Source: a bacterium
GTDB taxonomy: Bacteria > Patescibacteriota > Minisyncoccia > 1-14-0-10-42-19
Length of the DNA: 61,793 nucleotides
Assembly (NCBI GenBank): GCA_030690215.1
Contig: JAUYHD010000022.1
Coordinates: forward strand, 1-61,793
Reading direction: 5' to 3'
Of the stretch, positions 137 to 57,175 are shown piece by piece. Within the stretch, counting starts at the first letter, position 1. Every line of letters begins with the position of its first letter. The notes under the pieces were generated by a model. The model was not told the DNA's origin. It worked only from the letters and a program-made list of their open reading frames with translations, and did no database searches. Made by a program: the position numbers and the translations under genes.

Positions 137-221
137 TGGTGCCGCCGGTCGGAGTCGAACCGACACGAGTTGCCTCACACGATTTTGAGTCGTGCGCGTC
201 TACCAGTTCCGCCACGGCGGC
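137..221 (-). tRNA. tRNA-Leu(CAA), type II with long variable arm, CCA encoded
   Basis: Minus strand reads GCCGCCG-TG-GCGG..CGC-G-CACGA-CTCAAAA-TCGTG-variable arm-GTCGG-TTCGACT-CCGAC-CGGCGGC-A-CCA. All stems pair by hand folding. Confidence 0.9.
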
Positions 222-227
222 ATTAAA

Positions 228-445
228 CGTACCCCACTTTTTGCTACGGGAAGTCGTGGTGAAATTGTATAAAATACAATTTCACCTACCGGTTCCGCCA
301 CTCCAGCATTTTGTACAGGAGGTCGTGGACAATGTATTTATCAAATACATTGTCCTACCATTTCACCACCTCGGCAAAATTGGTGGCGGGGTACATCTGC
401 CAGCTTGCCCCGAACACGGTCGAGGGGTTCCGCCACTCAGGCGAC
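228..445 (-). other. Three tandem tRNA-Leu-like 5' modules upstream of the intact tRNA-Leu, two with an AT-rich perfect hairpin replacing the D-arm 3' strand
   Basis: Minus strand has GCCGAGGTGGTGAAATGGTAG+hairpin(327-355)+CACGAC and GCTGGAGTGGCGGAACCGGTAG+hairpin(258-286)+CACGAC. A third unit, GAGTGGCGGAACCCC...CCCCGCCACCA, lies at 381-445. The intact gene reads GCCGCCGTGGCGGAACTGGTAGACGCGCACGAC. Confidence 0.6.
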
Positions 446-4801: not shown

Positions 4802-6037
4802 TTGACAGAACTCAATAAAGATGAAAGCTTGTATGACGTAGATGTGGCGGGGAGAAAGATTTCTGGGGGTACTCACAACGGTCCTCATGGGGAAGAGATA
4901 TATTGTCTTATTCTGCTCTATCTTGCAGGGCGGTTGTTCAAGGGCATAGGGGCGTTTCTTGATGTATACGCGCCCGATAATACAATTTATTTTGGCGTGC
5001 GGAACGGTCCGTTTGACGAGCATCCTCCGTATGCAAATGAAGAAGAGCGTAAGAAAAAAGAAAATGCCTGCGCCTTAACGCTTTTTGCGGATGCGTTAAA
5101 GGAATTCGGTTTTGACGTTATGTCTCTGCCTGCTGTAAAAGCAACAGTAGAGCATCTTCTTGAGATGGATTCTCGCGCGAAAGCGCACGCGCTTGATATA
5201 ACGAATATCATAAAGGAGATGCATAGGTATTATAGAGACCATGCTATGGAGCCAAAAACCATTGCATGGGCGTTTAAAGGATTTTTGGCAAAACTTCATG
5301 AAGATCCGGATTCATCCGAAATAACAAACTTTAATATTGACTATATTGGACTGGGTCTTATGAAAGGGTTGCCCGAAGTTTTTCCCGAGCCGGACGCGGG
5401 ACAACAGTGGTATGCTCAAGGATTGGAGGCGCATACGTATTCTCACGAGACGCTGTATCAGGAAGCCAGGTGTGAATACAAACAAAAAGTCACAGTCACC
5501 ATGAAAGGGTGGGTAGATATTGAAGCATATTTTGAGAAACACGCGCCGGTAGAAGGATTTCGGATGATGCGAAAGGTGAAGCGACAACATATGGGCGATT
5601 TATTTGTACCGATTGTATTTATCCAGTCGAATAATGTGCTTGTCGGGCGGTACGCGCGCTCAAAAGAAGCGCGTAAACTAGGGATACACGCGGGAATTCT
5701 TATTCAAAGAAACTCAAGGGACCAATACTTCATCAATTTTGACAACAAGATTGAAGAGAATGGTTTCCAGCGGTTTCCCATTGAGGGAAGTCTTGTCGTT
5801 GCTCTGTTGCGGAATGAATACCGGAAAAAAGATGGGTTGAAGCAGTTGCAGATGGGGAATAAGCGATTATATGTAGTGGGTGAAAGCGCTGATGCTCCCG
5901 ACATGTTTTATTCCAAAAAAGACACGGAGAGTATTTTGAACGGCTCCGAGACGCGTCCACATGCCAAGCCGTTACCGTTTATGCCGCCAAAAGTGTTGCT
6001 TTGCGTTATTCGCGGCGTAAGAGAACAGCGACGCTAA
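4802..6037 (+). CDS. Hypothetical protein (orphan)
   Basis: AAGGAGG RBS 7 nt before TTG 4802. 411-aa ORF with no recognised domain. Shares an LYxVG..DAPD motif with the upstream protein. Confidence 0.55.
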   Translation: MTELNKDESLYDVDVAGRKISGGTHNGPHGEEIYCLILLYLAGRLFKGIGAFLDVYAPDNTIYFGVRNGPFDEHPPYANEEERKKKENACALTLFADALKEFGFDVMSLPAVKATVEHLLEMDSRAKAHALDITNIIKEMHRYYRDHAMEPKTIAWAFKGFLAKLHEDPDSSEITNFNIDYIGLGLMKGLPEVFPEPDAGQQWYAQGLEAHTYSHETLYQEARCEYKQKVTVTMKGWVDIEAYFEKHAPVEGFRMMRKVKRQHMGDLFVPIVFIQSNNVLVGRYARSKEARKLGIHAGILIQRNSRDQYFINFDNKIEENGFQRFPIEGSLVVALLRNEYRKKDGLKQLQMGNKRLYVVGESADAPDMFYSKKDTESILNGSETRPHAKPLPFMPPKVLLCVIRGVREQRR

Positions 6038-6542: not shown

Positions 6543-6646
6543 AGCGCTTCACAAAACAACGTTTTTGGAAAAGCAAGAAAACAAATCAATACGTGTGTAG
6601 TAAGCGGCGAACGCATGACGTATTATGCGATATTGCCTTACGGGGT

Positions 6647-6675
6647 TTGACCTCATTCGTTTTCTTCAGTATTAT
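6647..6675 (+). promoter_or_regulatory. Promoter TTGACC-N17-TATTAT for ftsH
   Basis: Hexamers at 6647-6652 and 6670-6675. The predicted transcription start falls at or next to ATG 6683. Confidence 0.55.
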
Positions 6676-6682
6676 GACAAAT

Positions 6683-8536
6683 ATGAAATTCTTCACAAAA
6701 AATGTTGCAATCGCAATTCTTATTTTTGTTTCGTTTGCTCTCGTGTGGTCGTTTTTTTCCAATGAACTGCGCGGAATTGAGCAGATAACTATTTCGCAAT
6801 TAGTGAACGATATCAACGCGGGTATCGTAGAAACAATTGTTGTAGAGGGGAATGAAGTGCGGGTAACGACTATTGATGGGACGGTAAAGCGCGCGAAAAA
6901 GGAATCTGATATTTCTCTTTTTGAGTCACTTACTAATTACGGCGTTTCTCCCGAACTGCTACGCCACATGTCCATTGAAATAAGCGAACCGTCAGGATTT
7001 TTATTCTGGGTAGGGGCGTTGCTCCCGTTTTTGATACCATTTCTTTTGATAATCGGATTTTTTTGGTTTGCGACACGCAATGTCCAGCGCTCCAATCTGC
7101 AAGCATTCAATTTTGGGCAGTCCCGCGCGCGCATCATCATGCCGGATGACAAAAAACAGCGCGTGACATTTGAAGATATCGCGGGGGTTGAGGAAGCAAA
7201 AGAGGAGCTCCGCGAAATAGTTGATTTTTTAAAAAATCCAACAAAGTTTACAAACATCGGCGCGCGGATTCCAAAAGGAGTGCTTTTAATGGGCGCCCCG
7301 GGAACCGGCAAAACGCTTCTTGCGCGCGCGGTTGCGGGGGAGGCGGCTGTCCCATTTTATTACTTGTCGGCTTCGGAGTTTGTTGAAATGTTCGTGGGAG
7401 TCGGCGCTTCGCGCGTACGCGATTTGTTTAAAATGGCGAAGCATTCAGCTCCTTCTATTATATTTGTTGATGAGATTGACGCGGTCGGGCGACACAGAGG
7501 AGCGGGTTTTGGCGGAGGGCATGACGAACGCGAACAGACATTAAACCAAATTCTTGTTGAACTAGACGGATTTGAACCTCACGAGTCAGTTATAGTAATG
7601 GCGGCAACTAACAGACCTGATGTTCTTGATCCTGCGCTTTTGCGTCCCGGGCGGTTTGATAGGCGCGTTGTTCTTGATTTGCCTGATATCAAAGATAGAG
7701 AGGCGATACTCAAAATTCATGCCCGAAATAAGAATTTGGAAAAAAGTGTTATTTTGCGGCGTGTTGCGGAACGCACTCCCGGATTTTCCGGCGCAGACCT
7801 GCAAAATCTCATTAATGAATCCGCCATTTTAGCTGCACGTAAAAATCGACGGCATATTACGCAGGAAGATATACTCAATTCTATTGAAAAAGTTCTTTTG
7901 GGTCCGGAACGAAAGGGCAGAATCATTTCTGAAGAAGAGAAAAAAATTACCGCCTATCATGAAGCAGGACACGCATTAATTGCCGCAGTATTGCCCGAAG
8001 CGGATCCGGTGCACAAAGTTACCATCATTTCGCGCGGGCGCGCGGGGGGCTACACCTTAAAGCTCCCGAGCCACGATAGGCGGCTTATCACAAAAACGCA
8101 TTTTGAAGGTGAGCTTGCGGTTGCTTTGGGCGGGTATGCCGCCGAGAAAATTGTATTTAAAGAATTAACGACTGGCGCATCAAACGATTTGCAGAACGCA
8201 ACCGATATTGCTCGCAGTCTTGTTACGCGGTATGGTATGTCTGATAAAGTGGGGCCGGTTGTGTTTGGGAACAGGGAAGAGTCAATATTTTTAGGAAAGG
8301 AGATGGGTATGCATGAGCGCGATTATTCCGAAGCGATTGCGAGCGTGATTGATAGCGAGGTTTCAAGTTTTATGAAGCGCGCGTTTAAACAGGCGCAGGT
8401 TATTATCACAAAATATCGCACTGTCTTGGATGCCATCGCGCACAAATTGATAGAGCAAGAATCTCTTGAACGAGAAGAATTCAATAAACTCATCAAGTCA
8501 TTTGGCATCAAACCAAAGCCGATTGTTTCCTCATAA
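6683..8536 (+). CDS. ftsH: ATP-dependent zinc metalloprotease FtsH
   Basis: N-terminal TM segments, Walker [12 protein letters not shown] second region of homology and the zinc motif HEAGHA. Start is uncertain (ATG 6674 or 6683); the track start at 6593 overlaps the promoter and repeats. Confidence 0.93.
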
Positions 8537-8555
8537 CTATTTGAACGGGCGATAT

Positions 8556-8585
8556 GGGAGTGTAGCTCAATGGTAGAGCACAGAG
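8556..8585 (+). other. tRNA-Ile-like 5' half (acceptor 5' strand, D-arm, anticodon-stem 5' strand)
   Basis: GGGAGTGTAGCTCAATGGTAGAGCACAGAG differs from the intact gene at 8602 only in the acceptor strand. Confidence 0.7.
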
Positions 8586-8601
8586 TCCCGAAAATGAATA
8601 T

Positions 8602-8673
8602 GCGCCTGTAGCTCAATGGTAGAGCACAGAGCTTATACCTCTGCGGTTCTAGGTTCGACCCCTAGCAGGCGCA
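8602..8673 (+). tRNA. tRNA-Ile(UAU)
   Basis: GCGCCTG-TA-GCTC-AATGGTA-GAGC-A-CAGAG-CTTATAC-CTCTG-CGGTT-CTAGG-TTCGACC-CCTAG-CAGGCGC-A. Anticodon is TAT. No CCA encoded. Confidence 0.85.
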
Positions 8674-8733
8674 TATTCATTTTCGAGGATCCTCGATATT
8701 TCAATAATATTTTTTTGATAAAGTATATCGGGA

Positions 8734-8816
8734 CTTATACCTCTGCGGTTCCGGGTTCGCCCGATTATTCAATCGGGCGACCGGTCGAATGACCGGTCGA
8801 GTCCTAGCAGGCCGCA
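8734..8816 (+). other. tRNA-Ile-like 3' half (anticodon loop to acceptor 3' end) carrying a 40-nt T-loop insertion
   Basis: CTTATACCTCTGCGGTTCCGGGTTCG + 40 nt + AGTCCTAGCAGGCCGCA. It is followed by a second copy of the 24-nt downstream flank TAT(T/G)CATTTTCGAGGATCCTCGAT. Confidence 0.7.
8760..8799 (+). repeat. 40-nt double-hairpin T-loop insertion, copy 1
   Basis: CCCGAT-TATTCA-ATCGGG followed by CGACCGGTC-GAAT-GACCGGTCG, inserted in GGTTCG^AGTCC. Confidence 0.75.
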
Positions 8817-8885
8817 TATGCATTTTCGAGGATCCTCGATTCCGTTCAAAACGGGGTCGGGATATAGCTGTCATTCAATCTTTGC

Positions 8886-8918
8886 AAATAGCACACTAGT
8901 GTGCTATTTTGTTTTTGA
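8886..8918 (+). terminator. ACTAGT-centred 24-nt perfect palindrome plus T run (terminator of the tRNA-Ile locus)
   Basis: AAATAGCACACTAGTGTGCTATTT followed by TGTTTTTG. Confidence 0.6.
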
Positions 8919-9644: not shown

Positions 9645-11744
9645 ATGGCTGATAACAAGATTAATAAACATGGCCAAGGATCAAAAGTCGTGATCCAAGA
9701 TAACATGCGGTTGCCGTTTCATATCCGGGAGGTCTTGGGAAATAAGCGGCGTTTTGAAAATGCCGCCCAAGCTGTTTCCAGAATGATTCTGGAAAAAAAG
9801 GTGAACAGGATCGTCCGAGCGGGAAAAAGCGCTTACGATTTTGAATTTTTTAGGGCAGACAAAAAACATATCATCGGCTGGTTTGATGAGATAAATGAAT
9901 TTGTGCATTTTGTGAAAGATGCGGCGGAAGGAGGATCGGCAAAAGAAATGGCGATCGTTCTTGTCGGAGAGGCAGGCAACGGAAAGACATTTTTTGTCGA
10001 TTTTCTTTGTTCAAAGTTCAGGGAATTTCTTTCACGGCCGGATAATACAAAATATACATTTGAATTTGTAGACATTAATGAATTGGGAAGTTATGGGAAC
10101 ATAACAGTGATCCAGTCGCAAACCTTCGAGGACCCCATGGTTCTTGCCATGAATGTATTTGATTCTAAAGATGAAACAAAGGAATTTCTTGGGAAGAACG
10201 GTTTTAGCGACCGACGGATAGAGTCCCTTTTCGGGAATTATCGTCCCTTGGGCGCCTGTTCTGAATATATATGGAAAAGCATCCGTAATTTTTGCAGCGG
10301 CGATCTGGATAAGATGCTTGAATTTATAAGGATCGTGCCGGTGCCGATGAGTGAAAGTCTCGGTACTGTTACCGGAAAATATTCGGCGCGGGATAAGATC
10401 ACTTCATCCGCGGTTGACCTATTAGGCGAAGAATCCATGTTCCGTTTGTTGAATATCGTTGATACCGATAATCCCTATAAACTGGATGTACGAAGAGGCG
10501 CGCTCGCCCGAGTTGCGGGCGGAGGAATCCATTTCTCTGACGAGATCTTTAAGAATAAGAAAGATCTTGTGCAGATCTATCTTCAAGTGATCCAGAACAG
10601 GAATATCGAGCTTGACGGTTTCAAGTGGCCCATTGATACATTGATAATCGCTACGAGCAATAACTGGGAATATAATCGGTTTGTTTCGGAAAAGGAAGAA
10701 GCGCCTATTAAGGACAGATGCCGTCTTTGTTATGTCGCGCACAATACGGATTATAAACTGCAGAGAGAATTGACCGACTACGCTATTGGGAGCGAAAAAA
10801 AGAGCACTATTTCAGGCGATCAAATGCATGAAGACCCTAATTTGAATTATGCCGCTTCAGTCAGCGTTGTTTTATCGCGTCTTCCTCATTCTGAAAAACT
10901 CACTCCGATTGAGACCATGAAGCTGGAAGCCGGAGAAATCGCAGGCGAAAAAGGCGTAAAAACCCTTGTTGAAGTAAAAGAGATGTCAAATGCAAATCCT
11001 GATGTGACTCGGAGATGGGGCCAAAAAGGGCTTGGGCATCGTGATCTCGGCAGATCCCTTCAGATATTAGGATCTCTTGCCGAATCAAATGAAGGCAAGT
11101 GTTTATTTGCGAAAGATATCTTTAAGGCTCTTGAGCGTATCATTCTTGATTACGTTATTGAAGCGACAGACCGCGATAAATTTTTTGCGGATTTGAAGAT
11201 CGCAAAAAAACTTTATCGCGAGCAAGTTAAAACCGTCATCTTTAACGCATATCGCGATGATCCGCAAGCAATCCGTAAAGATGTTTTGACCTACGTTAAT
11301 ATGATTATTGGGATGGACGCAGAACATCTTGGCCCCGATAAAATGTGGCGATATAAGGATCCGCAGACAAGGGAGTTAAAATCAATAAAGATAGACGATA
11401 AATACATCAACTCGGTCGAGGATAGGCTGGGCCTTGCTAATAAGGAACGCAAAGAATCATTCCGTAATTCGATTAGGAAGATCTACGGCCAAAAGATTTC
11501 TATCGATCCGGCATATGATTTTATGGACAATCAGGAATTAGTGAAAGCGGTTACTGATGTCCGTCTAGAGTCTGATGTTGCCGGAGCGGGTTCTTTGGTC
11601 GGCGCATTGGCGAACCGTACAAACGAAGAAAACCTCAAGGTGTATAGCCGTATGATTGATACCATGCTCCAAAAGATGGGTCATTGTCTGACATGCGCGC
11701 AAAAAACAATCGAGTATTTTTGCGAAAAAGAAGACGAACATTAA
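9645..11744 (+). CDS. prkA: PrkA family serine protein kinase (YeaG-like AAA+ protein)
   Basis: P-loop VLVGEAGNGKTF. Length and N-terminal layout match YeaG/PrkA. Followed by DUF444 and SpoVR genes. Confidence 0.85.
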   Translation: MADNKINKHGQGSKVVIQDNMRLPFHIREVLGNKRRFENAAQAVSRMILEKKVNRIVRAGKSAYDFEFFRADKKHIIGWFDEINEFVHFVKDAAEGGSAKEMAIVLVGEAGNGKTFFVDFLCSKFREFLSRPDNTKYTFEFVDINELGSYGNITVIQSQTFEDPMVLAMNVFDSKDETKEFLGKNGFSDRRIESLFGNYRPLGACSEYIWKSIRNFCSGDLDKMLEFIRIVPVPMSESLGTVTGKYSARDKITSSAVDLLGEESMFRLLNIVDTDNPYKLDVRRGALARVAGGGIHFSDEIFKNKKDLVQIYLQVIQNRNIELDGFKWPIDTLIIATSNNWEYNRFVSEKEEAPIKDRCRLCYVAHNTDYKLQRELTDYAIGSEKKSTISGDQMHEDPNLNYAASVSVVLSRLPHSEKLTPIETMKLEAGEIAGEKGVKTLVEVKEMSNANPDVTRRWGQKGLGHRDLGRSLQILGSLAESNEGKCLFAKDIFKALERIILDYVIEATDRDKFFADLKIAKKLYREQVKTVIFNAYRDDPQAIRKDVLTYVNMIIGMDAEHLGPDKMWRYKDPQTRELKSIKIDDKYINSVEDRLGLANKERKESFRNSIRKIYGQKISIDPAYDFMDNQELVKAVTDVRLESDVAGAGSLVGALANRTNEENLKVYSRMIDTMLQKMGHCLTCAQKTIEYFCEKEDEH

Positions 11745-11757
11745 GAATACCTATAAG

Positions 11758-11786
11758 GCCGGGCACTGTGCTCCGGCTTTTTTTTA
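11758..11786 (+). terminator. Terminator-like hairpin between prkA and yeaH
   Basis: GCCGG..CCGGC stem followed by TTTTTTTT. Confidence 0.5.
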
Positions 11787-11892
11787 TGATCTTATCTATT
11801 TCAGTTGTATCGTATCTTTGAGGGCAAAGGTAAAAATGCTACTATGGATACGAATAAGAATTGACAAATAAATATAAAAAGAGGTGTGTACT

Positions 11893-13170
11893 ATGAAAGG
11901 AAAGCATGTAACTGATTTGGATATTGAAGGAATGAAGTTGCGGATGAAATCGAAATTCGGCCGAATGAATAATATCCCCGCGTGCGCAGTCACGCCGATG
12001 CCGGCGCTCATATCCTTTGAAGACCTTCTGAAGAAGGATAAAGAAAGGGAAAAGGACGGTTTTAAAAGAAAAATAAAGATCAGAAAGATTCTTGCGGGAT
12101 CAGATAGAATTATTGTTGTGCCGTACGCGGAAGAAGAAAAGTTAGTCCATGGGGGTGTTAAGCCCCAAAATGAGAACGGCGATCTCGGAGAAGAAGTTGG
12201 CCATGGCGATTATGCGGTCGGAGACGTGATCGGACAATTTCCGTTATTTGGTGAAGACGGGGATGACGGAGACGGTGATGAAGGCGAAGGGGAAGGGGGA
12301 AAAGGCGACGAAGACCACAGTATTGAATCTGCAGCCTATGAATTAGGTAAAGAGCTTGCCGAGCGGTTTCAGCTTCCGAACCTGAAAGATAAAGGCAAAA
12401 AGGTGCCTACGAATGAGTATATTTATGATTTGACTGACAAACATCAGGGATCCGGGCAGGTGTTAGATAAAAAAGCAACATTAAAGAAAATAGTTACCAC
12501 CAATATTGCTCTTGGCCGGCTGGATAAGGATGCCGTTGATACGTCAAAGCTCATAGCTGCCCCCCGGGATAAGATCTTTCGCGTCCTTTCAAGGGAAAAG
12601 GTCTGGAAATCTCAGGCGATAGTTTTTTTTGTAAGGGATTATTCAGGCTCCATGTGGGGTGAGCCTACGAAAGCGATAGTAAATCAGCATCTCATGATCT
12701 ACGCCTGGCTTTTGGTGCAGTATGAAAAATTGGTAGTTCCGCGGTTTATCGTTCATGACCACGATGCGCACGAAGTAACTGTTGATGATTATTTTACCAA
12801 GAAAGCGTCGGGTGGAACGTATATTGCTTCGGCGTACAAGAAAATAAATGAGATCGTTGAAGGCGAAGCGCTTGAGCGGGACTATAATATATATGTTTTT
12901 CAGGGTACCGATGGCGAAGACGGTGATACTGCTGACGGCGATGCGGCACTTCCGGAATTACGAAAAATTCTGCGTTATGTCAATCGCATGGGAGTGAGCG
13001 TTCTTCGGCATGCGGCCTATGGCACGTCAGAAAGCCGTTTTGAAGAGTATCTAAAAAAAGGCGGCATTCTCGATCTTACGGATATTTTCCGGATGCACTC
13101 AATGCCGAGCGCGGGAGTCACCGAAGAAGAGAACGTAGAAGCGATTCGCACCATCATTTCACAGGACTAG
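11893..13170 (+). CDS. yeaH: YeaH/YhbH family protein (DUF444, vWA-like)
   Basis: Acidic G/D/E-rich tract, FFVRDYSGSMWG (the DxSGSM motif of DUF444) and a C-terminal metal-site-like FQGTDGEDGD. ATG 11893 follows AGAGG. Confidence 0.85.
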   Translation: MKGKHVTDLDIEGMKLRMKSKFGRMNNIPACAVTPMPALISFEDLLKKDKEREKDGFKRKIKIRKILAGSDRIIVVPYAEEEKLVHGGVKPQNENGDLGEEVGHGDYAVGDVIGQFPLFGEDGDDGDGDEGEGEGGKGDEDHSIESAAYELGKELAERFQLPNLKDKGKKVPTNEYIYDLTDKHQGSGQVLDKKATLKKIVTTNIALGRLDKDAVDTSKLIAAPRDKIFRVLSREKVWKSQAIVFFVRDYSGSMWGEPTKAIVNQHLMIYAWLLVQYEKLVVPRFIVHDHDAHEVTVDDYFTKKASGGTYIASAYKKINEIVEGEALERDYNIYVFQGTDGEDGDTADGDAALPELRKILRYVNRMGVSVLRHAAYGTSESRFEEYLKKGGILDLTDIFRMHSMPSAGVTEEENVEAIRTIISQD

Positions 13171-13179
13171 GAGGGAGCC

Positions 13180-14886
13180 ATGGAATTAATTGATCAAAAA
13201 ACAAAGAAAATAATGGAAGAATGCAAAGAAAAGGCGAAAATTGCAGGGTTGGAAGTTCGCGGAGAGACGCTTGAATATATTACCACAAATCAGGATCTTC
13301 TTGAGCTTTCACCGAAAGCAATGATACCCACTCTCTATGACTATTGGATCGACGATATTGATGTTATTCGTGGCAAGTGGCTGTATTCAATATATCCACA
13401 TAATCCGTATGAGACAGTCATAAATACAAGGCCCGCGATATCATTTTATAATGATAATAATCCGGATTGGTTTAACGTGATGATCTTTTACCATGTGCTG
13501 GGTCATATTCATTATTTCCAGAATAATATCTTCTTCAGAAATACATGGGCAGATGATTTTTGCGGGCAGGCGTTGGCTGATAAAAGATTGTTGAATAGGA
13601 TCCGGGAAGAAATGGGTGCGGAAAAACGATGGGTTGATTATGCCATAGAATTTGCACGAGGTATCGATAATCTTGTCGGCTATTACCCGGAGCTTGAAGC
13701 TGCTGATGCGGGCTGTGCGCATGCTCCGTACGGCGACTTATCTCAAAAGGCAGATTTTTATTTTGGCGAATTTTTGCGGCGTTTGTTTGAAGAAGGGTCG
13801 CTCACGATGAAGTTTTACCATCAGGAGATTGATCGTTATAATGCGTGCCAACGGACATTCGGCAAAGAACAGGCTGAAGATCTGTTTTTCAACAGTAATG
13901 ATCTTTTGAGCAAATTCCCGGAATTCAATGGAGTATTTGAAAAGAGTAAACAGATTCAGAAAACGGGAACAAGGGATATTTTCGATTATCTTATGCAGCA
14001 TTCGACATTTATGAATACGGCTGAAAATCGCTGGATGAAGGATGTGATGAGCATAGTGCGGAGGACTTCCCTCTTTTTTCAAGCACAAATCCGCACGCAT
14101 AGCAGTAATGAAGGCTATGCGAGTTACTGGCATGAGAAATTATTTCTTGGCGATGATGCGCTCAAGAGCCATGAAGTGGATTATGCGCGGGTAAATTCAG
14201 CCGTTGTTGCGAACCCGAAAATAGGATTTAATCCTTATGCGGTGTACAAGCACTTGTTTGAATTTATTGAAGATATGGCCGTAAAAGGAAAATTGTCCCA
14301 TAATTTTCAGCTGATACAAGACCGTGAGTTAAGAAAGCGATTCGATCAGCGGTGCGGGGCAGAGTACGGCAAGGATGTCTTGCTGCATGCAGCAAAGTAT
14401 TGCGATGACGCGCAGTTGGTGAATTTTCTTTCGGACGATGATTTTCAGGAATTCGTCGACAGATATAAATTATTTGTCGCCGGTGCCCGCATTCATCCTG
14501 AAAAATTTGGATATGCGGAAGTGTATGTCAAGTCAAGAAGCGGCAAAGACTATCGAAAAATGCTCAATGAGAGGTTGTATCATCCGCCGTATATTGTCAT
14601 CAACGAAGCAAAAGCCAAAAAGGGGGAGCTGTATCTTGACCATGTCTATGAAAAGCGGACTCTTGTAACGCGATATGTGCCCGCCGTACTTATTGGCCTC
14701 TCTTATCTTTTTGGCGAAACTGTCAAACTTGAAACAACAGAGTTTGAGATGGATAGCGTAGATATCTGGGATAGGTTCAATAATCCTGACGAAAAGCCGG
14801 AAGTTACAACATCACGCGTGCTATATACGTGTAAAAATAAGAGCATCCAAAGACAGGTCCTTGCGTATGTTAAGGAGGAAGAATGA
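13180..14886 (+). CDS. spoVR: SpoVR family protein
   Basis: Size and the conserved FYHVLGHIHYF and NEGYASYWHE motifs are typical of SpoVR/YcgB. GGAGGGAG RBS. Confidence 0.85.
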   Translation: MELIDQKTKKIMEECKEKAKIAGLEVRGETLEYITTNQDLLELSPKAMIPTLYDYWIDDIDVIRGKWLYSIYPHNPYETVINTRPAISFYNDNNPDWFNVMIFYHVLGHIHYFQNNIFFRNTWADDFCGQALADKRLLNRIREEMGAEKRWVDYAIEFARGIDNLVGYYPELEAADAGCAHAPYGDLSQKADFYFGEFLRRLFEEGSLTMKFYHQEIDRYNACQRTFGKEQAEDLFFNSNDLLSKFPEFNGVFEKSKQIQKTGTRDIFDYLMQHSTFMNTAENRWMKDVMSIVRRTSLFFQAQIRTHSSNEGYASYWHEKLFLGDDALKSHEVDYARVNSAVVANPKIGFNPYAVYKHLFEFIEDMAVKGKLSHNFQLIQDRELRKRFDQRCGAEYGKDVLLHAAKYCDDAQLVNFLSDDDFQEFVDRYKLFVAGARIHPEKFGYAEVYVKSRSGKDYRKMLNERLYHPPYIVINEAKAKKGELYLDHVYEKRTLVTRYVPAVLIGLSYLFGETVKLETTEFEMDSVDIWDRFNNPDEKPEVTTSRVLYTCKNKSIQRQVLAYVKEEE

Positions 14887-17057
14887 CAAAGGGAACAGAC
14901 GAAGCCTTACGGGCATTGAAACTGTATGTTGAAAACAAGGAAAGAAGAACGACTTTGAACTTTGAGCAGTATCTTGCTGATGTTCAGCAGAACCCGCAGC
15001 GATTGTTAAGGAATATTTTTCAGCTGGTGTATGATATGGTGAAAACCTCGGTCGCAGAGGGGAAAGATGAATATCCTGATGACCCCGAACGGATTGGTTT
15101 TGTGAAATATGATTGTTCAAAACTGTTCGTTGAAGGATCAGACAATCCTTTTTTTGCAGACAGGCTTTTTGCGAACAGATTGATGCGCCAAGTGGAGTCT
15201 TTGAAGCACGGATCCCAGCAGAACCGGGTGCATATCTATGAAGGCGCTCATGGATGCGGCAAAAGCACGTTCTTAAATAGTTTTCTTCGAAAATTTGAGG
15301 ATTATACTCAATCTCGAGAGGGGCAGATACATGAGATTTGCTGGGCAATAGACATGGAGGAGGGGAAATGTAATGTTTCCTGTCCGAGCCACGACCATCC
15401 CATGCTTATAATTCCAAAGCCATATCGCATCGAATTTCTGCAGGAATTATTGTCAACTAGCCCGGATGAGATCCAAAAGAAGGTTTTTCATGAAAAAGAG
15501 TACGAATGGCTTATGCGGAGGGATGTATGCACAATATGCAGATCCCTTTTTACAGCACTCTTGGATAGACTTGGATCTTTTGAAAAGGTTCTCGGCATGG
15601 TAAAGGCCCGGCCGTATGTCTTTGACAGGCGTTTAGGAGAAGGGATAAGTATTTTTAACCCTGGCGATAAACCGATGAAGGACTTGTATGTGTCAGACCG
15701 GCAACTCCAGGCAAAGCTTGATAAGATATTTGGCGCCAACCTCATCAAATATGTATATTCCCATCACGCAAAGACTAATAACGGAATTTATGCGCTTATG
15801 GATATCAAATCCCACAATAAAGAACGGCTCTTGGAGCTTCATAACATCATTAGTGAGGGAGTTCATAAGGTAAACGGGACCATTGAAGAGGAGATAAATT
15901 CGCTGTTTATAGCGCTTATGAACCCCGAAGACAAGACATCCCTTGAATCAGAGAATCTCATGGAGTCATTCCGTGAAAGGATCCAATATAACAAAATTGC
16001 CTATGTGATGGAAGTGCAGACGGAGATCCAGATCTACCAAAATACATTTGGAGACCAGATCAAGCAGCGATTCCTGCCACGCGTAATTGAAAATTTCGCG
16101 CGTGTGATTATTTCATCACGGATGAAGCCCGATTCCAAAATCCCTAAGGAATGGATCCCCAATATGGGGAAATATAAAAAATACTGCGATGAGGCAGGGC
16201 TCTTGTTACGAATGGAAATATTCGGGGGTATTATACCGGAATGGCTTTCTGAAGAAGATAAAAAGAATTTTACCCGAGCGATCAGAAGAAATATAATTGC
16301 CAATGCCGAAGACGAAGGTGGTATAGGATTTTCGGGGAGAGATTCGATCAGGCTTTTTGGAGATTTTTTCAAATCGCGTGGGTCACAACCGAATTTGATC
16401 ACTATGAATGACGTGGCTGTATATTTCAAAAAAGGCATCGGCAGAAAAAAAAGAGATGATTTTATACCGAAAAATTTTTTGGCGTCTCTTATAGATTGGT
16501 ATGATTATACGGTTTTGAATGAAGTAAAAGAAGCTCTTTATTTTTACAATCAAGAGCAGATATCCGAAGATATCCTGAATTATATGTCCGCTGTCAATTA
16601 CGATGTCGGAAGCAAGACCAAATGTAAATTTACGGGTAAGAGTATTCATGTTACGGCTAAATTTTTGAAGCACATGGGGTCTGCAATTACGGGAGAAGAG
16701 ATGAGCGATAATGACGCGTTGCGCTATGCCCAGCATATCCAGAAAAAATTTGTGAATATTATGGCCCAGGACCAGAATGCGGAGATTACGGAAACAGAAT
16801 TGTATCTTGAATTGTATGGGTCATACGCAAGGCACTTGAAAGAAAAGGTATTCCAGCCGTTTCTTAACAATGAGAATTTCCGCGAGGCAGTAAAATCTTT
16901 CGGGTCCGAAGATTTTGAAATTTTCGATACCCGGTTAAAAGAGCATATTGTCTACATGATCAGTAATCTTGCGGAAAAATTCGGCTATACGGAACAGGGG
17001 GCAAAAGAAATTTGTCTCTATGTGGTAGACCAGGCATTGGTAAAGAAATTCGCGTAA
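14883..17057 (+). CDS. Second, divergent PrkA-like P-loop protein
   Basis: ATGA overlap with the spoVR stop. P-loop EGAHGCGKSTF. N-terminal layout (LNFEQYL...) resembles YeaG. 724 aa. Confidence 0.6.
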   Translation: MTKGTDEALRALKLYVENKERRTTLNFEQYLADVQQNPQRLLRNIFQLVYDMVKTSVAEGKDEYPDDPERIGFVKYDCSKLFVEGSDNPFFADRLFANRLMRQVESLKHGSQQNRVHIYEGAHGCGKSTFLNSFLRKFEDYTQSREGQIHEICWAIDMEEGKCNVSCPSHDHPMLIIPKPYRIEFLQELLSTSPDEIQKKVFHEKEYEWLMRRDVCTICRSLFTALLDRLGSFEKVLGMVKARPYVFDRRLGEGISIFNPGDKPMKDLYVSDRQLQAKLDKIFGANLIKYVYSHHAKTNNGIYALMDIKSHNKERLLELHNIISEGVHKVNGTIEEEINSLFIALMNPEDKTSLESENLMESFRERIQYNKIAYVMEVQTEIQIYQNTFGDQIKQRFLPRVIENFARVIISSRMKPDSKIPKEWIPNMGKYKKYCDEAGLLLRMEIFGGIIPEWLSEEDKKNFTRAIRRNIIANAEDEGGIGFSGRDSIRLFGDFFKSRGSQPNLITMNDVAVYFKKGIGRKKRDDFIPKNFLASLIDWYDYTVLNEVKEALYFYNQEQISEDILNYMSAVNYDVGSKTKCKFTGKSIHVTAKFLKHMGSAITGEEMSDNDALRYAQHIQKKFVNIMAQDQNAEITETELYLELYGSYARHLKEKVFQPFLNNENFREAVKSFGSEDFEIFDTRLKEHIVYMISNLAEKFGYTEQGAKEICLYVVDQALVKKFA

Positions 17058-22597: not shown

Positions 22598-22760
22598 CGG
22601 TGGGGTGGCCGCCTGTCCGCTAAAGCTCTCGCCTCGCCGGAGCCTTCGGCGTAGCGCGGGTTAGCGTCGGCGGAAGTGGTTGAAGGCGAGAGTCTTGTTA
22701 CCGATTTGCCTGCGAGCAAAGCGAGTAGTCGCAAATCGCAATCCCGTTCCACATTTCTAT
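22598..22760 (+). other. tRNA-Ser-like 5' module with a GC-rich insertion of about 62 nt in the D-loop and a non-tRNA 3' part
   Basis: GGTGGGGTGGCC + insertion (holding GC-rich repeat copy B, 22626-22660) + AAGTGGTTGAAGGCGAGAGTCTTG. The intact gene reads GGTGGGGTGGCTGAGTGGTTGAAGGCGACAGTCTTG. Confidence 0.55.
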
Positions 22761-22873
22761 CGGAAAAAAAACGGAGGCGTGGCTGAGCGGTTGAAGGCAC
22801 CGGTCCTGTCCTCCGGAGGAGGATCCGCCTCTGGCGGAAAAACTTATTTACAAAAGTATATTTTCTTTCTTGC

Positions 22874-22963
22874 GGTGGGGTGGCTGAGTGGTTGAAGGCG
22901 ACAGTCTTGAAAACTGTTGTACTCGCAAGGGTACCGTGAGTTCGAATCTCACCCCCACCGCCA
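22874..22963 (+). tRNA. tRNA-Ser(UGA), CCA encoded
   Basis: GGTGGGG-TG-GCTGAGTGGTTGAAGGC-G-ACAGT-CTTGAAA-ACTGT-long variable arm-GTGAG-TTCGAAT-CTCAC-CCCCACC-G-CCA. Confidence 0.9.
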
Positions 22964-23010
22964 GGAAGAAAATATAAAAGTTTAGTATCCGCAAGAGTGC
23001 CGTGAGTTCG

Positions 23011-23050
23011 CCCGATCATCCGATCGGGCGCCCAGTCGAATGACTGGGCG
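23011..23050 (+). repeat. 40-nt double-hairpin T-loop insertion, copy 2
   Basis: CCCGATC-ATCC-GATCGGG followed by CGCCCAGTC-GAAT-GACTGGGCG, inserted in GAGTTCG^AATCC. Confidence 0.75.
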
Positions 23051-23084
23051 AATCCTCTCGCTTCCGTTTTCGGATAATAAGAAT

Positions 23085-23538: not shown

Positions 23539-26500
23539 ATGGATGAGATTGCGAACCCAGACATATCCGTTACTCCTAAAAAGGAAATATCGCAAGCGGG
23601 CGGCATTTCAGGCGGTGGCGGCAAGAAAGACAATTTCCTTTCTTTTTTTTCTCAATATAAAAAAAATATCGGGATAATCCTTTTTATACTGGTTGTTGCC
23701 GGTCTTTTTTATTTTTCGGGAGTTGTAGAAAAATTCGGCAGTCCCCGGTATGAAGAGCCCTATACGCTAGTGCCTGAAAAAATATCACAAAGCGCCGCTA
23801 TCCTTGTGCGCTTGCCCGAAGGCATTCGTATGGACGCAGACCAAGCTGTAGAAAAAATCACGTTTGAGCCCGTGATTGCGGGTGAATGGATAAGCGGTAA
23901 AAATGATTCTGAGCTTATTTTTCGGCCGAAGACAAAGTTAGAATTTGGTAAATATTATTCCGTTATTCTTGCGGCTGATGAAATTCGTCTTGAAAAAGAT
24001 TTTCTTATTGATGAGGACCCCAGGGTTATTTCTGTGTTTCCGGATGGGGGTTCCGAAGCATCCGAATATTCCAGCATCACCATTGTATTTAATAGGCCTA
24101 TGGTTCCTTTGACTACGCTTGATGTTCTTGCCAAAGAAAATGTTCCGGTTGAAATTTTGCCGCAAACGCCAGGGCGTTTTAAATGGATCACAACAAGGAA
24201 TTTACAATTTATTCCCGAGACGCGCTTGCAACGCTCTTCAAGTTACATCGTACGAATTAAGCAGGGTCTTGTTTCGCTCGACGGTCTTTCGGTTGCCGAA
24301 TTGGAACATAGATTTACGACAAGGCCGCTTCGTTATGAAGACGGACAGCAGGGACGTAGGCGGGGTGTTTCAAAAACGCTGTATAGCCAGCCAATCCGCA
24401 TTTTTTTTAATCAGCCTGTTGATATCGAAAGAACAAAGCAAGAGTTTGAGCTTACCCAAGTTAGTAGAGGCAGAGTTGATTTTACTGCCACATATGGAGT
24501 CCGCTCGATCTATAACGAAGAGACAAGAAAATATGAGCACAAGCTCGATAAATCAATTTTAGAAATTTATAACGCCCAAGACCGCCATGGCCGAAAAGGG
24601 TTTTGGGATTTTAATACCAATTATTCATATGTGCTTAAAAAAGCATATCCTCTTGAGGGGGACATTGATCTGCGCCAATCGATTGCCGGATCAATTGCAA
24701 CCACCGATATTATTGACACTCTTTCTGCGGAATCTCCGCGTACAGAGTTTGCCGAACCCGACCTCTTTGATCCACAGGGAAAATTATGGGTGACATTTTT
24801 TGAAGATATAGACAAGGACGCAAGTTCTATTGATGCCGATTTGCTTAAAGAAATTGGTTATGGAGAAAAGTGCAGAGAGCCGGAAGAGGGAGAGGAGGTT
24901 TCTTACGGAAAGGATTGCGAGAAGGTTACCGATTATAAACGGCTTTCGTTCACTTTTGATGAAAGCAAGTTCAAGCGCGGGCAACAGATATCATTGGAAT
25001 TTAAGAAAATTTTCAACAGGGCGGGACTTCGTTTAAATGCGGAGACGGTTACGCGTTCTGTAACCGCGTATCCCGAACTTGTGGTGTATAAAACGGTGCC
25101 TGCGGAAGGATCGCTTGACGCTGCTCTGACCGGAATGACTTTGTGCACATCAAATCCGCTTGCTGTGCCGGATGAAACAACTTTTTATGAATGGGTAAAA
25201 AGCAATGTTACTATCGGTCTTTGGAATTGGTACCCGCCTTTTCGGGTTCGGAGTGCGAATAGTAATTCTCTCTGTTCGCCGGGCCAATTTCAAAATACAA
25301 TTCGTTACGGTCTTGTCCCGGAATTCCCATATAAGATTGCGCTTTCTGTTGTTGATGATTTTGGCCAAAAAATTTCCAGAGAAGTTAATTTTACCAGTGG
25401 GAAATTATCTTCGTTTTCTCGGAACTTTTTTCATATGCAGGGACGGTATAATGTGACCTCTCCCGAACGAACAAAGCTGACATTTGCGGTAGACAATTTG
25501 GAATATGTGGATATGCATATTTGTAAAATTTCTGCCGAAACCATGCTGTCGTATATTGAAAAAAGACCGAACATAAGCTCTTCGCCCGCAAGCTTGAATT
25601 GCGAACAGGTTTTTGAGAAACGGATTGATTTGCCGAAGCGATATTGGTCCCGTGTATATTTTCAGGCAAATCTTAACGATTATGTTACGAGCCCGCTTGG
25701 GCATTATGTAGTTACGTTTAGTCATCCTGATTATCGCAGGGTCAGTCGTGAATGGAACTCTGCGAGCAGGCAGTATGTTGAACGGGTTGAGGGGCAACTC
25801 TATGAAAAATCCCTACTTACGGTAACGAAACTTGCGGTACAGGAAAAAAAGATTGACCGTCCTGAATTGGATATCCGGACAGAATTGGATAATGCGGTTT
25901 TGTCCCAATTTCCCCAGAATCTTTATTGGGTTACGGAGTTTGGCACTCTAGCATCGGTTATAGGCGCCAAAGTAGATTTATATAGGAAAGGACAGGAACG
26001 GGTTGGTTCATACAGTACGGATAGCGATGGCATCGCGCTTACCGATACATTTGAGGGCTTGGTAGGAGCTGTTGTGCGAAAAGATGGCGATAGCGCTATC
26101 GTGTCGTCCGGTATTGATCGATTGCAGTGGGGTTCTTCGGCTGTAGGCGTTGAGCGGACCTATCTTTATACTGACCGGCCAATTTATCGTCCCGGAGACA
26201 AGGTGTCTATTAAGGGCCTGTATCGTATCGGATATGATGCCCAATATGAAATTTTCCGGGATAATGATGCAACGATTGAGATTCGGGATAGTAATTATGA
26301 TGTTGCTTTGAAGAAGCAGGTTTCCATAAGCGATTACGGCACCTTTATTACTGAATTTACGCTTGATGCGCATGCGCCTCTTGGTACATATTCAATGGCA
26401 GCGCTTGATGGTTATGTGACGTTTGATGTAGAAGAATATGTTCCCGCGGCTTTTAAAGTGGAGACAAATGCCGATAAAGAGGAATATATTGCCGGGGGCA

Positions 26501-33892: not shown

Positions 33893-34079
33893 AGGCATAG
33901 GTTTAAAAAAATAATCAGATTTTTTCAGGAGGGAGGGGCGCGTTAAAAGAAAAATTACAAGGGAAAATTTCTACGAGGTTGCCGCCGGAGCGTTGAGCTG
34001 CGGCGGGTGGCGGGGCGGGTCAGTTTCCCCCGAAAAAAGTTTGCGCAAAGGATATAATTTCACCGTTTTGTTCCTTTGG

Positions 34080-34207: not shown

Positions 34208-34311
34208 CCGTTTTGTTCCTTGGATAGTATGTGGACTGTAAAAATTGAGAGAGAGAAATCGTTTAGAGATCCGGTTTCTCTTGAGGGCGTTATTAAATTG
34301 TATATTGTATT

Positions 34312-36773: not shown

Positions 36774-36913
36774 CTCTCCCTCCCTGTGAAGTTTTTAAAA
36801 TTCGTTCATACTGTAAAGAATATTGGTGATCGTGTCTATATTGACATAAGCAGAAACACGTGATACCCTTTCTGGGATAGCATTTTGAAAATTTTCTAGA
36901 TTAGGGAGGTTGT

Positions 36914-57125: not shown

Positions 57126-57175
57126 GCAAACGATGTTTTTTGAAAAATAAAAATAAACCCGCCCTTGTTAACACT

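Follow-up and report, generated by a model that had tools for sequence, protein, structure and literature searches.

The origin of interrupted, split and permuted tRNA genes is an old question that has been argued mostly from archaeal end-states. In bacteria, group I introns occur in the anticodon loops of tRNA genes (e.g. cyanobacterial tRNA-Leu and Azoarcus tRNA-Ile) and RNase III processing stems flank rRNAs and some tRNAs in precursor transcripts; single tRNA genes of bacteria are, to our knowledge, not regularly enclosed by leader-trailer duplexes. In the tRNA-dependent lysogeny of actinobacteriophages the host tRNA stays split, and its role passes to a newcomer of the same isotype (Guerrero-Bustamante and Hatfull 2024, PMC10865867). 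The att duplications of integrative elements also leave tRNA gene fragments (PMC9897764), a disruption model has been put forward for archaeal tRNAs (PMC3293823), and in Caldiarchaeum a 5' fragment has been reported upstream of an intact tRNA gene (PMC9897764, PMC3293823). Disrupted tRNAs of Archaea and red algae comprise non-canonical introns and split, tri-split and permuted genes, and intron transposition between tRNAs has been proposed for them (PMC4390854, PMC4090602, PMC3978253). Template-switch mutations, described for rRNA, give rise to RNA hairpins and keep them up (Monttinen and Loytynoja 2022, PMC8794818), but no account has derived nested gene copies from them.

The locus described here comes from an uncultured member of the Patescibacteria, in a contig of 61,793 nucleotides that was analysed as a whole and is henceforth called the window. 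Within it, the anticodon loop of an older tRNA-Ile copy holds a working gene, and the two halves of the older copy now flank this gene as relics. We found no description of a nested-tRNA pattern of this kind in the literature and rate it as a variation on known tRNA-gene disruption. It shares with tRNA-dependent lysogeny the order host 5' part, newcomer tRNA, host 3' part, but here neither prophage nor integrase is present, the linkers have shrunk to 16 and 60 nt, the junction positions are not constant, and the incoming tRNA is equipped with a leader-trailer stem in a pattern of several layers. Integrative elements likewise leave partial copies beside a complete gene, and these too are broken at the anticodon loop and T-loop; their fragments, however, bound kilobase-scale elements that encode a recombinase, usually with only the 3' part duplicated, whereas here the two sides fit into 300 nt, with nothing encoded in between. 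As in the disrupted tRNAs of Archaea and red algae, intervening sequences occur in anticodon, D- and T-loops and complementary linkers unite the halves. Those systems need a bulge-helix-bulge and a splicing endonuclease and their disrupted gene is functional, whereas this is a bacterium without the motif, the interrupted copy has mostly died and a complete tRNA takes the place of the 'intron'. An anticodon-loop insertion in a bacterial tRNA gene also recalls group I introns, which count tRNA-Ile among their hosts, but the 148-nt insert lacks the core, the 5' splice-site U, the terminal G and any Rfam match to them. Template switching makes perfect stems in one step and gives apparent compensatory changes, features that the leader-trailer stem and the relic hairpins resemble. 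A long leader-trailer duplex around a stable RNA, varying in sequence while keeping its pairing, is also like the RNase III stems, although cleavage by this enzyme is putative here.

The tRNA complex begins 4–20 nt past the stop codon of ftsH. The features of this unit are, in order:

6593–8536, forward strand: ftsH (from the list of open reading frames; matches FtsH homologues, the best named ones from Candidatus Niyogibacteria)
8540–8548, forward strand: TTTGAACGG, the left arm of a perfect inverted repeat (9 bp) bracketing the complex (pair I11, partner 8842–8850)
8556–8585, forward strand: 5' relic, tRNA-Ile positions 1–31, ending at the 5' strand of the anticodon stem (repeat family D1)
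8589–8601, forward strand: leader arm CGAAAATGAATAT, the reverse complement of the trailer, extending the inner acceptor stem (pair I1, 20 bp at 100%)
8602–8673, forward strand: working tRNA-Ile(UAU) gene, CCA not encoded (ARAGORN and Rfam tRNA)
8673–8685, forward strand: trailer arm ATATTCATTTTCG, which includes discriminator A73 and pairs with the leader (pair I1)
8684–8695, forward strand: 12-nt palindrome CGAGGATCCTCG in the trailer, present again at 8828–8839 and in the relative L162 (repeat family D2)
8696–8733, forward strand: AT-rich spacer ending in TCGGGA (pair I13; L162 has another spacer with the same TCGGGA end)
8734–8759, forward strand: 3' relic part 1, with anticodon loop, 3' strand of the anticodon stem, variable loop, 5' strand of the T-stem and TTCG (repeat family D3; orthologous relics in L162 and L081)
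8760–8799, forward strand: 40-nt double hairpin inside the T-loop of the 3' relic (pairs I8 and I14; family of three copies in the window)
8800–8816, forward strand: 3' relic part 2, with the remaining T-loop, 3' strand of the T-stem, 3' strand of the acceptor with one extra C, and discriminator (repeat family D6)
8817–8840, forward strand: second trailer copy, keeping an ancestral G also found in L162 (repeat family D2, 27/28)
8842–8850, forward strand: right arm CCGTTCAAA of the bracketing inverted repeat (pair I11)
8886–8916, forward strand: terminator-like hairpin and T-run, end of the ftsH-tRNA unit

No promoter-like site was found in the interval between ftsH and the tRNA, and to judge from this layout the complex is probably co-transcribed with ftsH. 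The open reading frame upstream of ftsH shows a weak similarity to a LigT-domain protein of the relative L164, too weak to identify it as a LigT-like enzyme. For FtsH itself, exact look-ups of the protein with each of three alternative start codons gave no match.

The inner tRNA-Ile(UAU) is the sole intact gene at the locus. ARAGORN made a single call in the region (tRNA-Ile(tat), 8601–8674), the Rfam tRNA model scored 71.8 bits at 8602–8673 (threshold 29), and the gene has the cloverleaf and the conserved D- and T-loop bases of a bacterial tRNA. An earlier interpretation of this DNA from its letters alone (the sequence-only reading) had placed an intact tRNA-Ile(UAU) between two half-copies and proposed running tRNA finders and covariance models on it; ARAGORN and the Rfam models call only the inner gene and, together with the repeat search, bear the arrangement out. 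The whole region folds at -136 kcal/mol (z = -9.0 against shuffles).

The 5' relic is identical to the inner gene over bases 6–30 (25 nt) and differs in the first five acceptor bases; the repeat extends over 8552–8585 and 8598–8631 with a 91% match. On the 3' side, 8734–8762 matches 8632–8660 at 90% and 8797–8812 matches 8655–8670 at 88%. Each half occurs exactly twice in the 61.8 kb (window-wide search, at most three mismatches), and two matches were obtained in 0/100 shuffles. The 3' half, earlier taken to run from 8734 to the acceptor end, is indeed present (8734–8816), though interrupted by the 40-nt double hairpin, which had gone unnoticed. The duplication claimed for the 24-nt downstream flank is real and amounts to 27/28 nt (8813–8840 against 8670–8697), and TCGGGA appears again at 8857–8862 as the end of the second 3' repeat unit. 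Because the D-loop variant is common to relic and inner gene within each genome (T in the window, C in L162), we read the relic as converted by the live gene. Its interior is kept like the live gene by gene conversion, and its ends decay or retain an older allele. The motif GTCCCGCC/GGCGGGAC, tried as a genome-wide repeat, stays at chance level within the window, and the match of GTCGAATGAC in L026 is also due to chance.

Leader and trailer form, with the acceptor stem, a perfect 20-bp inverted repeat (8589–8608 with 8666–8685), in which 13 bp of leader and trailer precede the 7 bp of the acceptor stem. The sequence-only reading had seen this helix and suggested testing it for covariation, but had given it only 11 bp. 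Across eight nested loci the leader-trailer cells are 94.8% paired, with two-sided changes at 11/12 pairs, against 41.7% in eight plain loci and 33–53% in slid controls. One such compensated pair separates the window (A-T) from L162 (C-G), and in nested inner genes the leader is almost always the reverse complement of the trailer; two nested loci, L165 and L166, have no stem. Pairing is maintained through compensation, as in a processing stem, and the leader-trailer stem is real and associated with nesting. The other helix of that reading, GTCCCGA with TCGGGAC, which was thought to bring the outer halves together, also exists and measures 8 bp (8584–8591 with 8728–8735), but we reject it as a functional element. 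It is by itself at chance level, because 601 bases contain 37 inverted pairs of 7 nt or longer, itself among them; it overlaps the first helix at 8589–8591, so that the two compete; and it is not found in the MFE or centroid folds of either the window or its orthologue L162.

The T-loop of the relic acquired a small double-hairpin repeat of its own, inserted as GGTTCG^...^AGTCC. Further copies lie at 23011–23050 and 34155–34194, where chance would give none, and all three follow the GGTTCG of a T-loop. Hairpin 2 shows two compensated changes between the copy in the tRNA-Ile relic and that of a tRNA-Ser relic. In copy number, hairpin conservation and defined target the insert qualifies as a candidate miniature inverted-repeat or REP-like element. 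The third copy resides in a lone relic:

34100–34210, forward strand: tRNA-like 3' relic holding the third insert copy; no tRNA is called in it and no working tRNA adjoins it

Two of the three other tRNA genes of the window (Ser and Leu) are accompanied by relics as well, and tRNA-Arg is without them:

22675–23066, forward strand: tRNA-Ser(UGA) complex of the same architecture, with two 5' relics, a working gene and a 3' relic
22675–22697 and 22772–22808, forward strand: tRNA-Ser 5' relics
22874–22963, forward strand: working tRNA-Ser(UGA) gene with leader/trailer stem
22976–23066, forward strand: tRNA-Ser 3' relic carrying the T-loop insert
137–374, reverse strand: tRNA-Leu(CAA) complex, with the gene at 221–137 and at least two 5' relics upstream

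The outer acceptor strands of the tRNA-Ser complex (GGAGGCG/CGCTTCC) pair and are extended by AAAAC/GTTTT. Each tRNA-Leu 5' relic carries a perfect 27-nt hairpin directly after GGTAG.

This layered, onion-like organization is thus found at other tRNAs of the genome, and also at the tRNA-Ile of many Patescibacteria. Repeat searches and reading of the sequences revealed relics at about half of some 24 distinct Patescibacteria tRNA-Ile loci adjoining ftsH. An intact tRNA-Ile between a 5' and a 3' relic was seen in L001, L005, L023, L030/L115, L081, L086, L089, L162 and L166 and 5' relics only in L006, L007, L017 and L165, and no relic copies were found in L002, L004, L009, L010, L013, L014, L016, L082, L102, L110 and L164. 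Junction positions differ by locus (31/32, 33/34, 35/36, or overlaps of 4–6 nt). The shells range from pristine to decayed: the outer halves of L089 and L086 are 100% identical to the inner gene, L086 in addition repeats its 3' half with spacer as a tandem pair of 59-nt units that are 100% identical, in L006 a tandem row of three 5' fragments occurs and the relics of L030/L115 carry perfect hairpins, while in the two closest relatives, L162 and L081, the outer 3' half is truncated past the 5' strand of the T-stem. L023 has lost the 3' strand of the outer D-arm, the outer T-stem of L001 is short by 3 nt and that of L005 pairs at only 3/5 positions. The content of the shells differs too. The orthologous shell of L081 holds another tRNA-Ile allele, different from that of the window at about 20/72 positions and with different linkers, and acceptor types are radically different among relatives whose FtsH is 72–87% identical to that of the window. 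Outer and inner acceptor stems of one locus may differ by fully compensated pairs (three in L001, two in L005, two in the window tRNA-Ser). In the window and L162, inner gene and shell are of the same allele type; downstream gene order in the window differs from that of the relatives.

We lean, by a modest preference, towards reading the locus as a DNA-level scar of tRNA gene replacement with one working gene, and tRNA genes in these bacteria seem to be repeatedly overwritten from inside, not spliced. A tRNA copy flanked by hairpin arms, of a related or foreign allele, would enter the anticodon loop of the resident gene by recombination or through some element and then assume its function. The whole block would be transcribed together with ftsH, the leader-trailer stem would clamp the ends of the live tRNA so that the half-copies could not mispair with it, and might offer a double-stranded cleavage site (RNase III type) before RNase P, RNase Z and CCA addition, and the outer halves would stay unspliced. 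Replacement is preferred over slow divergence because of the differing allele in the shared shell of L081, the divergent acceptor types and the compensated changes between outer and inner stems; the closest relatives have indeed a common shell with differing cargo. Several observations count against it. No recombinase, transposase or reverse transcriptase was found among the 20 ORFs of the window that were scanned, and neither the cassette nor the T-loop insert has a match in viral contigs. The varying junctions are unlike those of a precise site-specific system, the same allele inside and outside together with the duplicated inner trailer (window, L162) suits a purely local duplication equally well, the outer copies of L089 and L086, with halves identical to the inner gene, may be spliced, and L165 and L166 are nested yet stemless.

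An origin by local replication errors only, without incoming DNA, is rather less probable in our estimation, the relics and perfect hairpins being neutral by-products on that account. The polymerase would stall in the anticodon loop and switch to the opposite strand just past the gene; backward copying of trailer and acceptor 3' strand would yield a leader that is their exact reverse complement; and after re-annealing at the acceptor 5' strand the gene would be copied anew, a separate slip duplicating the 3' half and trailer. Such a route fits the leader being exactly complementary from position -1, with the discriminator paired as well, the inner trailer duplicated past the 3' relic with both 3' units ending in TCGGGA, the identical tandem units of L086, the triple fragments of L006 and the perfect hairpins in the relics of tRNA-Leu and L030/L115. 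As is known from rRNA, one template switch suffices to give rise to a perfect RNA stem or to keep it up (PMC8794818), and a single event would account for the stem and the 5' relic occurring together. What it leaves unexplained is the different allele of L081 in the same shell, the outer acceptor stems that are fully paired yet two or three compensated pairs away from the inner ones, and the linker motifs conserved in L081, L089 and L005 beside a covarying helix; moreover, two or three switches or events are required per layer, yet both sides usually co-occur. The anticodon loop and T-loop are the classic crossover sublocations of tyrosine integrases, and we know of no phage tRNAs with leader-trailer stems. 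Both bear on the view that an integrative element or phage crossed into the host tRNA at its anticodon loop (and its T-loop), brought its own tRNA and was later deleted down to this tRNA, by then essential, and a few linker bases, which we hold to be improbable. The two breakpoints are in the expected loops, the lysogeny in which a phage tRNA of the same isotype complements the disrupted host tRNA sets a precedent (PMC10865867) that geometry and isotype here would suit, short overlaps occur at the junctions of L089, L086, L005 (TATA) and L115 (TTATAA), and the downstream gene order has changed. Yet no integrase was found among the 20 ORFs scanned and no island bounded by distal tRNA-Ile fragments exists in the 61.8-kb window; a 3' repeat such as att-site duplication would leave is present, but only 60 nt from the gene. 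The parts are 16 and 60 nt apart, which would need near-total deletion in many lineages; the junction positions vary; and exact-pattern scans of viral contigs for the T-loop insert, the L081/L089-type trailer and the window-type leader gave no match.

In the window the acceptor strands of the outer copy (GGGAGTG against CAGGCCGC) do not pair, as had been pointed out before; the T-stem strands CCGGG/CCTAG, which had also been called unpaired, do in fact pair at 4/5 positions once the insert is set aside (one G-U, one C-A mismatch). Exons that would join into a foldable tRNA with four stems are found only in L089 and L086, not in the window, L162 or L081, and no excision restores the outer copies of L162, L081, L023 and L001. 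An intron of the archaeal or eukaryal type does not apply, since inspection of the junctions shows no bulge-helix-bulge (3-nt bulges, 4-bp helix): the insert begins after the 5' strand of the anticodon stem (31/32) and passes directly into the 7-bp helix, and the T-loop insert junctions likewise have no 3-nt bulges 4 bp apart. A group I intron or other ribozyme does not apply either, with no match to Intron_gpI or a ribozyme model up to E = 10 or at the gathering score, a 5' exon ending in G and an insert ending in A; most of the insert is tRNA, and no known RNA family in Rfam is found in the linkers. The halves lie on one strand about 150 nt apart, and this is no split tRNA of the Nanoarchaeum type because there is no promoter-like site between them and their acceptor strands in the window are unpaired. 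In most loci the outer copy is, by its sequence, a pseudogene, and a functional intron-containing or split tRNA is therefore unsupported. Thus the sequence-only reading was right to place a whole tRNA at the point where the anticodon loop of another copy is opened and to find simple tandem duplication inadequate, while its functional outer tRNA falls away; the 'duplication or recombination scar' that it allowed for comes nearer to the truth but undersells a recurrent, layered scar with a conserved, covarying stem. That RNase P and RNase Z free the inner tRNA from a composite RNA, whose helix-held outer halves are ligated or spliced into a second tRNA, strikes us as very improbable. It would accord with the outer halves of L089 and L086, which would make a perfect tRNA, the paired outer acceptor strands of L001, L005, L023 and the window tRNA-Ser, the covarying linker helices with an internal-loop motif kept in L081, L089 and L005, and the T-loop insert, which occupies the same site in each of three relics and shows compensated changes; but besides the defects just listed, the outer anticodon equals the inner one and adds no decoding capacity, and the surplus tandem 3' halves of L086 make no sense for splicing. 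An assembly artefact, i.e. a chimeric path through strain variants with common tRNA k-mers, hardly comes into consideration. It is true that the short-read contigs L161, L163 and L165 break exactly in this region and that the left part (8540–8770) has no second identical assembly. The linkers, however, are unique sequence that must be in the reads, from 8771 on the window is reproduced without a difference by L161, an independent assembly of short reads, and the junctions CAG(A/C)G|TCCCGA and TCGGGA|CTTATAC recur in L162, which comes from a different sample. L166, L167 and L168 are independent and identical through the locus, differing by one copy of a 12-nt tandem repeat about 190 nt downstream, and the pattern is present in assemblies from JGI, NCBI, ENA and Logan.

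A bolder form of the replacement reading, which we put forward as a speculation more apt to fail than to hold, is that hairpin-flanked tRNA genes are a new small non-autonomous mobile cassette of Patescibacteria that homes into the anticodon loop of its cognate tRNA, kills it and replaces it (a 'cuckoo' tRNA), with companion mini-hairpins that target D- and T-loops and layered relics as a fossil record of successive take-overs. Such cassettes, if real, would be a living model of tRNA gene disruption. In any case, one bacterial lineage offers many intermediates together (pristine nested copies, decaying shells, swapped cargo and hairpin inserts in all three loops), and since these states occur side by side comparative genomics can date the process and put its steps in order, and RNA data can test it. 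Should the stem really shield the live tRNA, organisms with minimal RNA-processing machinery would here mature a tRNA from a precursor of unusual design. Layered relics also have a practical side, as they defeat tRNA finders and assemblers near these loci, where the three short-read contigs break. Finally, the arms of the 9-bp repeat that brackets the whole complex are paired in the MFE and centroid folds; taken alone it is near chance, an estimated 0.7 or so such pairs being expected in 600 nt, and it may be the remnant leader/trailer stem of the outer copy.

The sole tRNA called by ARAGORN and Rfam in the region is a tRNA-Ile(UAU) (8602–8673, 71.8 bits), the intact inner gene that the sequence-only reading had placed between two halves of another copy. 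Repeat analysis recovered both halves and the duplicated trailer, and the 3′ half does begin at the anticodon loop, but it does not run uninterrupted to the acceptor end as had been described. Once the insert that interrupts its T-loop is disregarded, the two outer T-stem strands, described as unpaired, do pair at 4 of 5 positions; the outer acceptor strands are indeed unable to pair. Searching the 61.8-kb window with up to 3 mismatches gave exactly two occurrences of each half, a number that no shuffled sequence reached, and the whole region folds far more stably than shuffled sequence (z = −9.0).

Features of the nested tRNA loci in the window
8556–8585: 5′ half-copy of tRNA-Ile; 25 consecutive bases equal the inner gene, only acceptor bases 1–5 differ (repeat analysis)
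From 8734: 3′ half-copy of tRNA-Ile, starting exactly at the anticodon loop (repeat analysis)
8760–8799: 40-nt double hairpin within the T-loop of the 3′ half-copy
8813–8840: second trailer copy of 24–28 nt, matching 8670–8697 at 27 of 28 positions (repeat analysis)
22675–23066: tRNA-Ser(UGA), built like the Ile locus; two 5′ relics, working gene, 3′ relic whose T-loop also carries the 40-nt insert
137–374, minus strand: tRNA-Leu(CAA) with at least two upstream 5′ relics; relics assessed on the upstream side, the window ending soon 3′ of the gene

The tRNA block begins a few bases 3′ of the ftsH stop codon. Since no promoter-like site was found between ftsH and the tRNA, and a terminator-like hairpin follows the block (8886–8916), it is probably the 3′-terminal part of the ftsH transcript. 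The order ftsH to tRNA-Ile(UAU) close downstream is conserved in this Patescibacteria group, the best named FtsH relatives of the organism being Candidatus Niyogibacteria. Directly 3′ of the locus (9645–17057) lie two PrkA-type kinases, a YeaH/DUF444-like gene (so labeled from its position and the annotation of L161, an independent assembly of the same region) and SpoVR, an unusual set for a Patescibacteria genome; in two relatives, L162 and L164, the corresponding place is taken by other genes (ThiF, JAB and small ORFs), so the tRNA locus marks a break in gene order. The gene just 5′ of ftsH has LigT/2H-phosphoesterase (2′-5′ RNA ligase-like) domains in the related contigs L163 (324–1994) and L164 (314–1960); the window ORF at this place (4802–6037) has no Pfam match and is weakly similar to these proteins. 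Elsewhere, 35595–39135 and 55933–58426 hold genes resembling aromatic amino-acid and proline catabolism (HPPD-like dioxygenase, fumarylacetoacetate-hydrolase family protein, biopterin-dependent hydroxylase, proline dehydrogenase), a rich complement for the phylum.

A comparison of about 24 distinct Patescibacteria loci in which tRNA-Ile adjoins ftsH (L005 and L084 being one locus) showed that such relics recur in many of them while others are plain. An intact gene between 5′ and 3′ relics was found in L001, L005, L023, L030/L115, L081, L086, L089, L162 and L166, 5′ relics only in L006, L007, L017 and L165, and no relic copies in L002, L004, L009, L010, L013, L014, L016, L082, L102, L110 and L164. 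The order is constant, 5′ pieces upstream and 3′ pieces downstream, at times in several layers, and the breakpoints fall in the three tRNA loops: the anticodon loop (31/32 in the window and L162, 33/34 in L081, 35/36 in L001, with junction overlaps of 4 nt, TATA, in L089, L086 and L005 and of 6 nt in L115), the T-loop/T-stem (window Ile and Ser, L001, L023, L086, L166) and the D-loop (window Leu relics, L030/L115).

Around the inner gene, the 11-bp leader/trailer helix proposed earlier proved longer, a perfect 20-bp inverted repeat (8589–8608 with 8666–8685) made up of the acceptor stem and 13 leader-trailer pairs, the discriminator among the paired bases. In an alignment of 8 nested loci, each comprising the tRNA with 12 nt on either side (leader and trailer), the 12 leader-trailer pairs were formed in 94.8% of cells, with two-sided changes at 11 of them; sliding the partners by 1–3 columns left 33–53% paired, and the same count on 8 plain loci gave 41.7%, i.e. 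chance. The window and L162 stems are one fully compensated pair apart (A-T versus C-G), and the window's second trailer copy retains the L162 state. The inner tRNA-Ser gene has a stem of the same kind, of about 17 bp; the stem is missing in the nested loci L165 and L166. The leader-trailer stem is real, associated with nesting, and maintained. The other proposed helix (GTCCCGA/TCGGGAC), thought to join the outer halves, fared worse: 600 nt hold 37 short inverted pairs, of which it is one, it has three bases in common with the longer stem, and it does not appear in predicted folds of the window or its orthologue L162.

Three genomes (the window, L162 and L081, the FtsH of the latter two each 87% identical to the window's) share orthologous outer shells. 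In L162 and L081 the 5′ relic directly follows the ftsH stop, and in the window it starts about 20 nt further on; the 3′ relic ...GGA|(CT)TATACCTCTG is common to all three. The window and L162 enclose the same cargo; the cargo of L081, within a shell of the window's allele type, is another tRNA-Ile allele that differs at about 20 of 72 positions and has different linkers. The 5′ relic agrees with the inner gene of the same genome in a D-loop variant (T in the window, C in L162), a sign that the relic interior has undergone gene conversion. Relatives at a greater distance (FtsH 72–80% identical to the window's) have yet other acceptor types, and one of them, L164, a plain gene. Outer and inner acceptor stems differ by 2–3 base pairs in L001, L005 and the window tRNA-Ser, all compensated, which drift in a dead copy could not bring about; the nested pair therefore appears to consist of two alleles that evolved separately.

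The outer copy itself is mostly dead. The 3′ relic ends after the T-stem 5′ strand in L162 and L081, the D-loop and D-stem 3′ strand are missing in L023, an insert replaces three T-stem bases in L001, and in L005 3 of the 5 T-stem positions pair. Only in L089 and L086 could the outer halves form a perfect tRNA, there 100% identical to the inner gene. As, in addition, no intron or ribozyme family match was found and no bulge-helix-bulge forms at the junctions, the suggested intron-containing or split outer tRNA is not supported for the window; it is barely possible in the pristine loci L089 and L086 alone.

The tRNA-Ile locus is best read as a scar left in the DNA by gene replacement or duplication, close to what the sequence-only reading had kept as its fallback: the resident gene would hold, in its anticodon loop, a tRNA copy flanked by hairpin arms, with this inner gene doing the work and the halves being relics. 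The stem would most likely be kept because it clamps both ends of the live tRNA to each other amid competing half-copies in the transcript, and because it would offer a double-strand cleavage site ahead of RNase P, RNase Z and CCA addition. Arrival of an incoming allele would account for different cargo inside one shell, for outer and inner acceptor stems that differ in a compensated way and for the fast allele turnover among relatives; a local replication error is favored by a leader exactly reverse-complementary to the local trailer, by the duplicated trailer, and by tandem 3′ units and perfect hairpins in relics, and template switching makes such stems (PMC8794818). The breakpoints would also fit a scar of classical integrase action or what tRNA-dependent lysogeny leaves behind (PMC10865867), but no integrase was found among the 20 window ORFs scanned, no island in the window and no match in the viral contigs. 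An assembly artefact is unlikely because the same junctions appear in independent samples and assemblies. Three short-read assemblies do break in or beside the tRNA region (the start of L161 at window 8771, the ends of L163 and L165); its repeats evidently defeat assemblers, and such loci would also escape surveys in this way.

A literature search found no account of a nested tRNA combined with a covarying stem and recurrence, and we know of no such combination. Already described are tRNA fragments beside tRNA genes, insertions in tRNA loops, and incoming tRNAs that replace a disrupted host tRNA (PMC9897764, PMC3293823, PMC4390854, PMC10865867). The combination for which no account was found comprises a complete tRNA nested at short range and in layers inside the halves of another, its covarying leader-trailer stem, and the recurrence across one bacterial phylum and across isoacceptors, which together offer a testable view of tRNA gene disruption.

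Some loci carry further linker structures. In L081 (4883–5027), L089 (5771–5934) and L005 (~5550–5697) one internal-loop motif recurs in the linkers around the inner tRNA, with YGAGGA as its 5′ side and GARUGAC as its 3′ side; in predicted folds tandem G-A faces G-A, and the motif adjoins a basal helix that covaries (sequence differs, pairing is retained). The motif, not present in the window, may be a k-turn-like protein-binding site. L089 (5714–5770) and L086 (~6195–6135, minus strand) share a stem-loop module of ~57 nt (ATTGGCAGTGAGGGAG... / ATGGCTAGTGAGGGAA...) between the 5′ relic and the tRNA-carrying hairpin, with TATA on either side in L089. Near 4268–4305 in L166, L167 and L168, a 12-nt tandem repeat (AATCCTTGAATT) has 2 or 3 copies between otherwise identical assemblies.

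The 40-nt insert belongs to a small repeat family: its double hairpin follows GGTTCG of the T-loop in the Ile and Ser relics and also in an isolated tRNA-like relic at 34.1 kb, giving three copies in the window against a chance expectation of none. The second hairpin differs between the Ile and Ser copies by two base pairs, both compensated, and the insert had no match in viral contigs. At the tRNA-Ser locus, which adjoins a 2215-aa ORF (23539–30186), the outer acceptor strands pair (GGAGGCG/CGCTTCC) and retain their own five-pair extension (AAAAC/GTTTT). Each tRNA-Leu 5′ relic has a perfect 27-nt hairpin directly after GGTAG, and there may be a third fragment near 441; the window tRNA-Arg is plain. 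Finally, 33925–34215 gathers tRNA-like fragments in a 'graveyard' that lacks a live tRNA and in which the third insert copy lies in a 3′ relic with a long variable arm, whose trailer (CCGTTTTGTTCCTTGG) is duplicated ~145 nt upstream and for which a matching GGAGGGG acceptor 5′ strand lies ~270 nt upstream.
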